The position numbers were made by a program, and so were the translations under genes. A DNA stretch of 64,000 bases, taken from Euglena gracilis. Lineage: Eukaryota. Positions within the stretch are counted from its first letter, which is position 1. Each line of letters opens with the position of its first letter. The DNA lies in the NCBI GenBank assembly GCA_039621445.1, contig CP154954.1, positions 44,247,847 to 44,311,846 on the forward strand, in the 5' to 3' direction. Shown piece by piece: positions 46,401 to 49,133 of this stretch. Below the pieces are notes generated by a model, which saw only the letters and a program-made list of their open reading frames with translations, was not told where the DNA came from and made no database searches.

Positions 46401-49133
46401 CACACACACACACACACACACAGACACACACACACACACACACACACACGCGCGCGCGCGCGCTCACACACACAACAAACACCACAGATGCACAACACAT
46501 TTGTACAACACAGACACACAATACATATACATATACATATACATATACATATACATATACATATACATATACATATACATATACATATACAAATACATAT
46601 ACATATACATATACCTATACATATTCGGCATAAATATCAATTGCTACCCCCCCTACCCCGGCCAGGGGGGGGGCAGCAGTTTGATACTTGGGTACACTTT
46701 TTGCAACACTTATTTGGCAATCGTTTTTTTCCTCTCTTATTTGAAGGAGTAGGGTCAGGTGCGCACATTCATATTGCGCTACATGGCTTTGTTGCGCTAC
46801 ATGGCCATGTTGCGCAACATGGCCATATAGCGCAACATGAATGTGCGCACCTAACCCTACTCCTTCGAATAAGAGAGGAAAAAACGCTTGCCAAAAAACT
46901 GCTGGCTAAAGTGCACCCAAATATCAAACTGCTCCCCCCCCCCTGGCCGGGTAGGGGGGGTAGCAGTTTGGTACTTATGCCACATATTCATATACATGTA
47001 CAAAAACGTATACATATACATGTACATTTCCATACATATACATGTATATATAAATATTCACCCGAAAATACCCTCCCCCCATATGCCCAACGACCGGTAA
47101 CCTCTGTCCTCTGACCAGGTGGGGGGTCATTGGACATAGGATTGTGACCAAAAAGGTGTCCTCCGACTGGGGGGGGGGGTGTTTGTTGGACAAGGTGTCA
47201 AAAAAAGTTGGCAGGAATCCAGGACCCCTCCCCCCAAAAGTCAAAGTTTTCCTTCCGGGCGTCGGGCCAATTTTTTTGGGCGATTTTGACAATTTATTTT
47301 GTCGAAAAAGCGCCAAAAATGGCACTTTTTGAAAACGTTGGCAATTTTTTTGGCAACAATTTTCGGACTGGCTCTTCGCACCGGGCCAAAAACCTGACAA
47401 AATCTCCAAAAGGTGTCCTCCGACTGGGGGGGGGTGGTCGCGGACATTAGGGGGTCGCTGGACACAGGGGGGGGGGTATACAGAACACGGAACACACCCG
47501 AGTGATGTTGAAATAGGTGATGCAATTGTTGGAGTCCCATAATGGCCACACCGTGGTATTGATGTTGCGACACAGGCGCAGATTATCGGGGGTCGATTCC
47601 AGAGGAACGCTCCCCTTGCTTGTGTGTGACCTCTACGTCAACTATCTTCCCCTCCAGATGCCAAATTGAGAACAAGGAGGATGCCAACTGTCAGGAGGGA
47701 AATCTCCGGGGGGGTTTCACTTCCCTTCTTTTCCCACTCTGGCGCTTGGCGCCGGGAACGTGCAAGATATCAGTGTTCTTCGCCAAAATCATCCAGAGAT
47801 GACGATGTATGTCTGGTGCAATTTGATGGCAAAAACCTTCATCTGGTGGGTGCGGCAAAAAAAAGGTCGGAGGCACTGTGGCGGAATGACAACCGCTGTG
47901 ACAACTTGGTGACAACTGCCATCAGGAAGGCACCCACACCATCTAAGCTGAAGCCAGAAACTCAGAAACCGACAAATTCAGCTCGGATTAAAAGATCCTG
48001 GAAGGGTGAACAGACGGGCCTTGGAGCATCCCTATGGCCTCCACCTCGGAGCAGTACTCCCACAGCCCCACGCTGGGAGAGGGGGGGAGATGGGTGTGCT
48101 GCTGACTTTCGCAGGAGGAATTGCGCTGTCAAATTGGGGTTTAGAGGGTGGACACCCCCCCCCCTCTGCCTGCTGCGGGAAACAGGCCCAGGTAGACACC
48201 ACCCCCCTCCCCTCCTCGGGAGTCGTGCAGACCGCCATTTAGTGCATATCACAGCGTATCTGTGATACATTAATTTTTTTTGGTGATACATATGTGATAG
48301 ATTAAAACATTTTTGGTGATACATATATGATACATTAAAATGTTTTTGCTGATACATACGTGGTACACAAATTTTCCTCGACAGGTGTTAAGCAATGGTA
48401 TGTCTCCTAATCACAAGAAAAATGTTCCATTTGTCTGCAGAGAGGCAAGGAAACAAAGATGAAAAGCGGAACAGAAAACATAAAAAACATTTTGATGTAA
48501 AAAATAAAAATCTCTAAAAATTGGTGATACATGTGTGATACATTAAAATTTGTTTGGTGATGCATGTGCGATACATTAAATTTTTTTGGTGATGCATATG
48601 TGATACATTAATTTGTAGGCTGTGATACATGTGATGCGTAAAATTTTTTTGGTGATACGTACTAAATGGAGGTCTGGAGTCGTGTCTGCCTGTCTTCGGG
48701 CAGAAATTTTGCTCATAATGGACGGAGTGTTTCGGCTGAGGACCCAGAAGGTCTAAAAACATATGCCCCCCCCCCCACCCAGGGTGGCGAAGAAGGTGGG
48801 AAGGCGGCACTCCCCACCCAGGGTGGGGTCGGCCAGCCCTAAATTCAGTCCGTTGTTGGGGGGGGGGGGTGAGGGACGAGCCCACACACCGGACCGTCGC
48901 CGGCCGGCCCAGCGGCAAATACACGGTGGCCCACTGCGACCACGCGGGGAGGATGACGGCGGCCGCCATGAGGGCAGCGGAGGCCGGCAGCAAGCACGTG
49001 TGGCCATCCAGAACCCCAGACCCAGTCACGCCCAGTCACGCCCAGTCACGCCCGGTGATGTCGTGAGGTGCTTGGCCAGCAGGCTGAGCCCCGCCAGCCC
49101 CAGAAGGACGGTGGCGGCGTTCCGCCGTCCCAT
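34451..49133 (-). CDS. Claudin/PMP22/amastin-like four-TM membrane protein with long Pro-rich C-tail
   Basis: TM1 [37 protein letters not shown]; loop VGLWEYCSE (~48072-48046) then [18 protein letters not shown] (~47615-47498); TM2 [20 protein letters not shown] (~45690); TM3 [25 protein letters not shown] (~45118-45040); TM4 [29 protein letters not shown] (~38404-38325, from 37944). W..GLW..C..C is the claudin-superfamily signature. The tail exons and stop (~34451-34515) are uncertain. Confidence 0.7.
35863..37010. repeat. (CA)n/(CACG)n arrays flanking a small exon (~36560-36710)
   Basis: Direct observation. Confidence 0.9.
37945..38324 (-). other. Nonconventional intron variant, N3-AAG...CTT-N5|G
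   Basis: gca|GGC AAGGGGCTCC ... GGACCCCTT CCCGC|ggc joins TM4 as VVSA|GLALAAL. Confidence 0.6.
39020..39310. repeat. (ATATAC)n array
   Basis: Direct observation. Confidence 0.95.
39313..40183. mobile_element. Composite CAGG...CCTG element with long internal inverted repeat
   Basis: caggtgagaaatataatacccc / ggggtattataatcctcacctg. Internal arms are at ~39745-39850 and ~40045-40145. Flanked by (ATATAC)n-type arrays; no TSD. Confidence 0.7.
40827..43841. mobile_element. 3-kb degenerate relative of the 13087-14816 element
   Basis: Termini cttaggtggc.. / aaagcttaaatgcgagatgcaccgccaaag; dispersed gatgtgcgcaaatgcgcac motifs; internal similarity between ~41665-41700 and ~13880-13915. Confidence 0.65.
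43996..44246. repeat. (AT)n-rich array (another at ~32580-32745)
   Basis: Direct observation. Confidence 0.95.
44253..44563. mobile_element. MITE family C, longer copy next to a (TA)n array; degenerate copies at ~19517-19770 and ~35558-35630
   Basis: Same TIRs and internal repeats as 23745-23914, with TA flanks. Confidence 0.85.
46627..46981. repeat. ~355-bp fold-back palindrome
   Basis: ggcataaatatcaattgctacccc..ccggccagggg matches cccctggccggg..ggggtagcagtttggtacttatgcc. Arms pair almost to the centre near 46803. Confidence 0.85.
47071..47476. mobile_element. MITE family D (ctatgtccaa/ttggacatag), TA-flanked; further copies at 55897-56273, 59471-59834 and ~60378-61135
   Basis: All four loci share gaccggtaacctctgtcctc, aaaaggtgtcctc and ttggacatagggg motifs. 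Confidence 0.8.
48986..49077 (-). other. Nonconventional intron with 7-bp TIR and 7/8 target-site-like duplication
   Basis: Minus strand reads ctgct|GGC CAAGCAC ... GTGCTTG CTGCC|ggc. Removal gives a continuous TM1 ([15 protein letters not shown]). Read-through hits a stop. Confidence 0.75.

Follow-up and report, generated by a model that had tools for sequence, protein, structure and literature searches.

The nonconventional introns of euglenids are non-GT-AG introns with slidable junctions and a helix that pairs positions +4 to +6 with -8 to -6 (PMC3935182, PMC4770533, PMC12501133). Their ends have been described by Nomura et al. in 2025 as the code 5'-N3CDG-/-CH'GN5-6|R, in which the 5' spacer is strictly 3 nt and the 3' spacer is best at 5 nt, and single changes in CAG or CTG abolished splicing in a knock-in assay (PMC12501133). 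In E. agilis, 71.8% of the introns are nonconventional; 61.2% of those fit the code and 38.8% lie outside it (PMC12501133). Here we analyze a 92-nt intron on the minus strand of a 64,000-nt stretch of the Euglena gracilis genome (assembly GCA_039621445.1, contig CP154954.1, positions 44,247,847 to 44,311,846 of the forward strand; "the window", in which position 1 is the first letter). A first-pass annotation had taken this intron to be an intact transposon footprint and a candidate for a system in which MITEs (miniature inverted-repeat transposable elements) become introns (introners). We find that the 92 nt are a nonconventional intron that is spliced out of RNA, and that within the window the look of a transposon scar is inseparable from the usual end pattern of nonconventional introns.

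A MITE-like origin of nonconventional introns was proposed in 2014, when no euglenid transposon was known (PMC3935182), and the Background section of a 2016 paper added frequent direct repeats to that argument (PMC4770533). A 2024 review treats the CAG/CTG motifs as terminal inverted repeats (TIRs) and the junction repeats as "TSD-like", that is, like target site duplications (PMC11282704; the whole word "hAT" is absent from that review), and the 2025 code paper restates the MITE idea (PMC12501133). The annotation's remark that a transposable-element origin had been suggested in general terms was therefore apt. Its account of the code agrees with the published formula, and its statement that hAT elements make 8-bp duplications is found in PMC4316626, where their TIRs are given as 5-27 bp. 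The Merlin elements of E. gracilis make 8-bp duplications too, with TIRs that start with GG (PMC8101967). Intron 4 of gapC in E. agilis ACOI 323 is newly gained and strain-specific and has 8-nt direct repeats at its junctions, which Milanowski et al. read as the product of break repair (PMC4770533).

The 92-nt intron resembles euglenid nonconventional introns in its non-GT-AG ends, slidable junction and terminal helix, in its spacers of 3 and 5 nt, in the pyrimidine-purine (Y|R) step at both junctions, in a next exon that starts with a purine and has C as its third base, and in the presence of conventional introns in the same gene. It departs from the code of Nomura et al. in having CAA/TTG and not CDG/CH'G, a deviation that the annotation had noted and that the sequence confirms; a compensated third-position A-U pair of this kind is not among the variants in the accessible text of PMC12501133. 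With gapC intron 4 it shares direct repeats at the junctions of a nonconventional intron, here 7/8 as against eight nucleotides in gapC; the gapC intron is strain-specific and thus recent (PMC4770533). The five CAG...CTG elements that we describe below resemble hAT MITEs (PMC4316626) in their short TIRs and exact 8-bp duplications, whereas the 92-nt intron is single-copy in the window. The proposed footprint would also be like the introners of Micromonas and others (PMC11282704) in idea, since there a TIR element and its duplication give the splice geometry and the element is removed with one duplication. Unlike those introners, which are multi-copy, have spliceosomal GT/GC-AG ends and make 3-nt duplications in Micromonas, the 92-nt intron has no family in the window and no GT-AG ends, and its duplication would be 8 bp. 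Introner elements are also said to have been treated by Huff et al. in 2016.

Splicing of the 92-nt intron

On the minus strand, positions 49082-48983 read ctgct|GGC CAAGCAC ... GTGCTTG CTGCC|ggc, the bars being the cut sites. A 7-bp TIR flanked by direct repeats identical at seven of eight positions had been annotated, and on this strand it is as described. The parts of the intron are as follows.

48986 to 49077, minus strand: nonconventional intron of 92 nt in the register that fits the code (the RNA joint permits 48982-49073 up to 48986-49077)
49068 to 49074, minus strand: 5' arm of the terminal helix, CAAGCAC, intron positions +4 to +10, paired in the minimum-energy and centroid folds
48991 to 48997, minus strand: 3' arm of the terminal helix, GTGCTTG, intron positions -12 to -6, paired with the 5' arm
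49075 to 49082, minus strand: upstream 8-mer CTGCT|GGC, the last five exon bases and the first three intron bases
48983 to 48990, minus strand: downstream 8-mer CTGCC|GGC, the last five intron bases and the first three exon bases
49021 to 49053, no strand assigned: 10-bp minisatellite of 3.3 units in mid-intron

Two RNA read sets and two contig sets were mapped onto positions 46650-50990. A joint from 48981 to 49074, which skips 92 nt, is carried by 19 reads, 15 from read set X21 (14 starts) and four from X24 (four starts). The same join is present in one X1 contig, whose ten terminal loose letters equal 49083-49092. The joint slides by four bases (GGCC) and five registers are therefore equivalent, with ends AA..CC, CA..GC, CC..GG, GC..CG and GG..CC, none of them GT/GC-AG. 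The annotated junction 49077/48986 is one of the five and the only one to give N3-helix...helix-N5|G. The unspliced frame meets a stop within the 92 nt and the spliced frame is open. The 92 nt are confirmed as a real nonconventional intron that is spliced out of the RNA.

In the code-fitting register GGC stands before the helix and CTGCC after it, followed by G, a purine. All nonconventional introns need a pairing of this kind to be spliced, so the inverted repeat does not by itself speak for a TIR. It is perfect over 7 bp (49074-49068 / 48997-48991) and matches at 13/18 positions on extension (13/20 overall in the TIR comparison), and the terminal helix runs inward from +4/-6 in both the minimum-energy and the centroid structures; the whole 112 nt folds no better than shuffles (z = +1.7). 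The flanking repeat is partly palindromic (GCUGGC/GCCGGC), and the helix is prolonged across both cut sites, leaving a CU bulge. The triplets CAA/TTG are outside the CDG/CH'G code and retain the CA/TG core of Milanowski et al., its best conserved part, which makes this intron a natural example from outside the code. In itself it adds little, being one more nonconventional intron, though its splicing in vivo takes place with a third pair, A-U, that the code does not include. Numerous transcript contigs that are otherwise unrelated match the minisatellite at 49021-49053 and this part only, with summed depths in the bin of 1775 and 534, so the 10-bp motif is widespread in the transcriptome; loose contig ends lie at its edges, at 49020/49022 and 49049/49052.

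Probably, in our view, this is an ordinary nonconventional intron of the euglenid type, efficiently removed and presumably non-spliceosomal, that lies in the region of the first coding exon of a gene for a small membrane protein of E. gracilis or a very close relative. In the pre-mRNA the helix CAAGCAC/GUGCUUG would pair intron positions +4 to +10 with -12 to -6, and the cuts would fall 3 nt upstream and 5 nt downstream of it, both at Y|R steps (U|G and C|G). A purine would begin the next exon, and the exons would be joined by the machinery that removes nonconventional introns. The apparent TIR would then be the functional splicing helix, and the apparent 8-bp direct repeat would largely be a ...CC|GGC-like pattern shared by the junctions.

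Junction 8-mers and the common end pattern

Twenty-five introns, 18 nonconventional and seven conventional, were mapped in the window, in the host gene, an RRM gene, a fourth gene and at two joints of a neighbor gene. Fifteen of the 18 nonconventional introns fit the published code register, and the census is in line with the picture from E. agilis (PMC12501133). An RRM exon matches the EukProt protein EG_transcript_13111 at 100% identity, by which the window is Euglena gracilis-like, EG being taken to stand for that species. Mapped with this protein, the RRM gene has nine introns, of which five are GT-AG and four nonconventional. The fourth gene, from 54512 to at least 61809, was mapped with the close, non-identical transcript protein P0006 and has ten introns, every one of them nonconventional; at six of the junctions the placement involves no amino-acid mismatch, at the other four one or two. 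One intron from each of these genes enters the comparison by name.

26600 to 26677, minus strand: RRM nonconventional intron I4, 78 nt, GGC CGG...CCG CTGCC|c, across which a transcript-derived protein reads
59333 to 60010, minus strand: putative fourth-gene nonconventional intron J0b, 678 nt, GAC CGG...CCG GCCCC|g, placed with the non-identical transcript protein

The flanking 8-mers of the 92-nt intron (49082-49075 and 48990-48983) are identical at 7/8 positions, or 8/9 when the next base is counted. RRM I4 had been said to keep 6/8 of a duplication; the transcript protein confirms the intron and its 8-mers do match at 6/8, as do those of J0b. The own pairs of junction 8-mers were compared with pairs taken across introns, in the 12 introns with a 5-nt 3' spacer, leaving out the three with a 6-nt spacer (3/9, 5/9 and 5/9) and three off-code introns. 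Identity within introns is 40/96 (42%, mean 3.33/8). Across introns it is 39% (mean 3.14/8 over 132 pairs, one of them 8/8 and four 6/8). Shuffled pairings reached the observed total in 67,703 of 200,000 trials (p=0.34). The first-pass annotation had named the absence of an excess of direct-repeat identity at nonconventional junctions as grounds for giving up its proposal, and in these 12 introns the overall excess is largely absent, with a tail of three introns remaining. Its observation that most other introns match at only 1-4/8 agrees with our count, nine of the 12 lying at 0-4/8.

A naive test against displaced registers had given 53/123 (43%) versus about 25-29%, an apparent enrichment that mostly disappears in the own-versus-cross permutation, a control that keeps the junction pattern. 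A 7/8 match has P ~0.0015 per intron against local sequence; against the 8-mers of the other introns it is about 1 in 132, so that one such match among 12 introns is unremarkable. When the window was scanned blindly for 7-bp inverted repeats whose flanks match at 7/8, about three places outside microsatellites came up by our own sorting, which is roughly chance. Both intron ends share a pattern that is roughly ...CC|GGC, and since own and cross identities are about equal, the 8-bp direct repeat is mostly shared junction consensus. This pattern is the rule of Y|R steps and a C at the third base given in PMC4770533, and most of the repeat is accounted for by it. It could be the legacy of target preference and duplication, or something that the splicing machinery requires.

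The downstream 8-mer of the 92-nt intron (48983-48990) and the upstream 8-mer of RRM I4 (26675-26682) are the same word, CTGCCGGC. Both introns have GGC as N3 and CTGCC as N5, and in both GGC is able to pair with the last three N5 bases, which brings the two cuts face to face and leaves a CU bulge. Fourth-gene intron J5 (56758-57535), whose junction was placed with the non-identical protein, is off-code and has a CAGTG/CACTG helix with spacers that total 6 (3+3, 2+4 or 1+5), not 8. A few residues of the RRM gene (21810-28567) are not those of EG_transcript_13111, examples being L/P just past the first junction and S/T, A/T, R/H, S/P and V/A elsewhere; the window comes from a strain, allele or paralogue other than that of the transcriptome.

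CAG...CTG elements and the origin of the intron

All CAG...CTG pairs 40-3000 bp apart with a TIR of at least 10/12 were collected from the window, giving 168 candidates. Their flanks are identical at 8/8 in five, at 7/8 in none and at 6/8 in one, the rest forming a background that peaks at 1-2. The five with perfect duplications, to none of which a strand was assigned, include the two that had been annotated, at 52503-52788 and 33110-34427, exactly as reported.

52503 to 52788: CAG...CTG MITE, 286 bp, 13-bp perfect TIR, duplication CTCCCGAT
33110 to 34427: CAG...CTG element, 1318 bp, duplication ACTTGGAG
48228 to 48676: CAG...CTG MITE, 449 bp, TIR 17/20, perfect 8-bp duplication GAGTCGTG, nested in a conventional intron of the host gene
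12747 to 12922: CAG...CTG MITE, 176 bp, duplication GTCGAGGA
27922 to 28034: CAG...CTG MITE, 113 bp, duplication GGGCCAGG, within conventional intron 1 of the RRM gene (28465-27888)

An older copy of the MITE at 52503-52788 lies at 5007-5281 (88% identical, flanks 5/8 by hand count). Short TIRs with 8-bp duplications define hAT, and Merlin TIRs begin with GG, so by those criteria the five CAG elements are hAT-like. A CAG start is typical of Ac/hobo-type hAT ends. No hAT transposase or autonomous partner was noticed within the 64-kb window, and no genome-wide search was made. The MITE at 27922-28034 had been a candidate for an RRM intron in its own right and was rejected, as the transcript protein puts it inside the GT-AG intron 28465-27888; like the MITE at 48228-48676, it is not itself an intron. 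A purine at position 6 of the duplication in 5/5 MITEs was likewise dropped, as this holds on the plus strand only and falls to 3/5 on the minus strand; read in the direction of transcription, neither of the two genic MITEs has it.

It is conceivable, although in our judgment doubtful, that the splicing code of euglenid nonconventional introns is the end geometry of hAT elements in domesticated form, with CAG/CTG as hAT-type termini and the 3+5 spacers as the 8-bp duplication. Cuts 3 nt before and 5 nt after a CAG...CTG element would remove, by arithmetic, the element and exactly one 8-bp duplication, and so restore the exon. The annotation's sum 3+5=8 therefore holds, and the five elements with 8-bp duplications exist; no MITE of the window was seen being spliced. 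For the MITE at 48228-48676 no RNA joint was found at the predicted nested sites, an absence that tells nothing, since the host intron is removed in its entirety. If the idea were correct, any such MITE in an exon, given a purine at duplication position 6, would be cut from the RNA with exactly one duplication, and exon insertions would be near-neutral, explaining the share of about 70% that nonconventional introns have in Euglena. The 92-nt intron, RRM I4 and J0b would then be moderately young examples. The idea addresses how nonconventional introns arose and why their odd spacing is 3 and 5. The real CAG...CTG elements with exact 8-bp duplications and the published 8-nt repeats turn a vague MITE-like origin into a specific, falsifiable claim. 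The hAT/8-bp reading is coherent, testable and apparently new in its specifics, and is weakly supported in the window. A full-text literature search that left supplements and most subscription-journal papers outside its reach found no link of hAT, the 8-bp duplication and the 3+5 spacers.

A system by which MITEs would become introns is not demonstrated. The 92-nt intron belongs to no MITE family and is single in the window. There are 0 further copies of it in these 64 kb, and it has no likeness to any of the five MITEs beyond "CA". When each of the 18 nonconventional introns was set against the whole window, 0/18 coincided with an element end to end, and none matched another intron end to end; the only sequence that these introns have in common is nested repeats.

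Several observations nevertheless weigh against the reading as an ordinary nonconventional intron. The window holds five CAG...CTG elements whose 8-bp duplications are perfect, and one of these is in the host gene itself, at a distance of 400 bp; the newly gained E. agilis intron carries 8-nt repeats (PMC4770533). Three of the 12 own pairs match at 6/8 or better (the 92-nt intron at 7/8, RRM I4 and J0b), a tail reached in 3,130 of 200,000 shuffles (p=0.016). Target preference together with duplication would itself leave a shared end pattern, so that the consensus control is compatible with a transposon origin, and, the genome being very large, 64 kb say little about whether the intron has family copies. 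One alternative explanation is that the intron is the relic of a hAT-like MITE, whose insertion into an exon duplicated 8 bp, whose splicing removes the element plus one duplication, and whose 7/8 match is a slightly decayed duplication. The 8-mers adjoin the inverted repeat in exact duplication register, the match is rare against local sequence, and of the 168 candidates five have flanks at 8/8, against none at 7/8 and one at 6/8, with one family present in two copies. Short TIRs and 8-bp duplications define hAT (PMC4316626), and the spacers of the code are 3 and 5 (PMC12501133). We nonetheless regard this explanation as rather unlikely. For a young insert at 7/8 to end in CAA/TTG, both ends would have to have changed in a compensating way, or a CAA-type family that has not been seen would have to exist, and there is neither a second copy in the window nor MITE similarity beyond "CA". 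The own-versus-cross comparison gives p=0.34, the tail without the 92-nt intron falls to two own pairs at 6/8 or better, reached in 12,621 of 200,000 shuffles (p=0.063), nine of 12 N5-type introns lie at 0-4/8, and no intron is a repeat end to end. For the 92-nt intron an insertion origin with TIR and 8-bp duplication is possible, not demonstrated.

In another explanation the intron arose when a staggered double-strand break was mended with filler DNA; the direct repeat would be the signature of repair and the helix either chance or selected later. This reading has been offered for the 8-nt repeats of gapC (PMC4770533), and the generic minisatellite in the interior, found in many transcripts, could have been captured as filler. 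It leaves unexplained why the repeat adjoins a 7-bp inverted repeat at exact code offsets, and why the published new intron has exactly 8 nt, and we hold it to be quite improbable. Less probable again, and very unlikely, is that the 92 bp are not spliced at all and that the joined reads come from an allele or paralogue without the insert, the insert-bearing transcripts being degraded. Close to the junction, the RNA shows a second base at six exon positions (48937, 48957, 48958, 48976, 49116 and 49123); its share of the X21 reads ranges, according to position, from about one quarter to two-thirds. Two alleles or near-identical copies are thus expressed, and the unspliced frame has a stop. Yet the 92 nt show every positional feature of a nonconventional intron, the window holds 18 such introns, another of them in the same transcript, and there is no sign of an unspliced form: the loose ends inside the 92 nt are the minisatellite edges (reads crossing the borders were not tabulated).

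The host gene and other repeats of the window

The gene that hosts the 92-nt intron contains a second nonconventional intron and two conventional ones.

49078 to 49132, minus strand: exon 1 (its coding part), starting with the ATG at 49132-49130 and encoding a hydrophobic N-terminus
48890 to 48985, minus strand: exon 2, from RNA joints and contig pieces
48073 to 48889, minus strand: conventional GT-AG intron, 817 nt, joint from 48072 to 48890, plus-strand ends CT..AC
47595 to 48039, minus strand: second nonconventional intron, 445 nt, GGC CAT...CTG GAATC|g, joint from 47593 to 48039, slide 1
45692 to 47497, minus strand: conventional GT-AG intron, 1806 nt, with a loose end before 47497 and the next exon, from 45691 down, placed at 45661-45690

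The exon between the GT-AG intron 48073-48889 and the nonconventional intron 47595-48039 is only 33 nt long, and the junction 8-mers of the latter intron match at 3/8. The product has a hydrophobic start and a GLWxxC...C motif. We take this motif to be that of claudin/PMP22-type proteins, and it is the sole basis of the label claudin/PMP22-like. Pfam gave no match for the host-gene exon pieces, for P0006 or for the first exon of the neighbor gene, and a protein search with exon 45511-45690 gave no match.

Apart from the CAG...CTG elements, a repeat of about 480 bp with ends like CAGGGG...CCCCTG and internal CGGAAAAATTG arrays occurs at 24503-25001, 50346-50827 and 58083-58538 (88-94% alike). 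Of these, two are situated within nonconventional introns and the other within a conventional one, none coinciding with the intron ends, and its flanks show 7-8 repeated nt if one terminal base is taken as ambiguous. A 355-bp element at 46627-46981 has ends that start with GG (GGCATAA...) and a perfect 8-bp duplication, ACATATTC, and fits the Merlin-type ends of E. gracilis (PMC8101967); a smaller pair of TIR and duplication, 46767-46842, lies inside it. A 321-bp element at 44248-44568, with 12-bp perfect inverted ends ACCTACCTACCC, stands in an AT microsatellite and has partial copies of 95-96% identity in the nonconventional RRM intron I6 (23696-24185) and weaker ones at 19551-19717.

A third expressed gene, placed on the minus strand by X24 read orientation, spans 49985-51750, with exons at about 51748-51572, 50976-50869 and 50145-50081. 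Its joint from 50145 to 50869 occurs in several forms with extra letters, which suggests paralogous transcripts.

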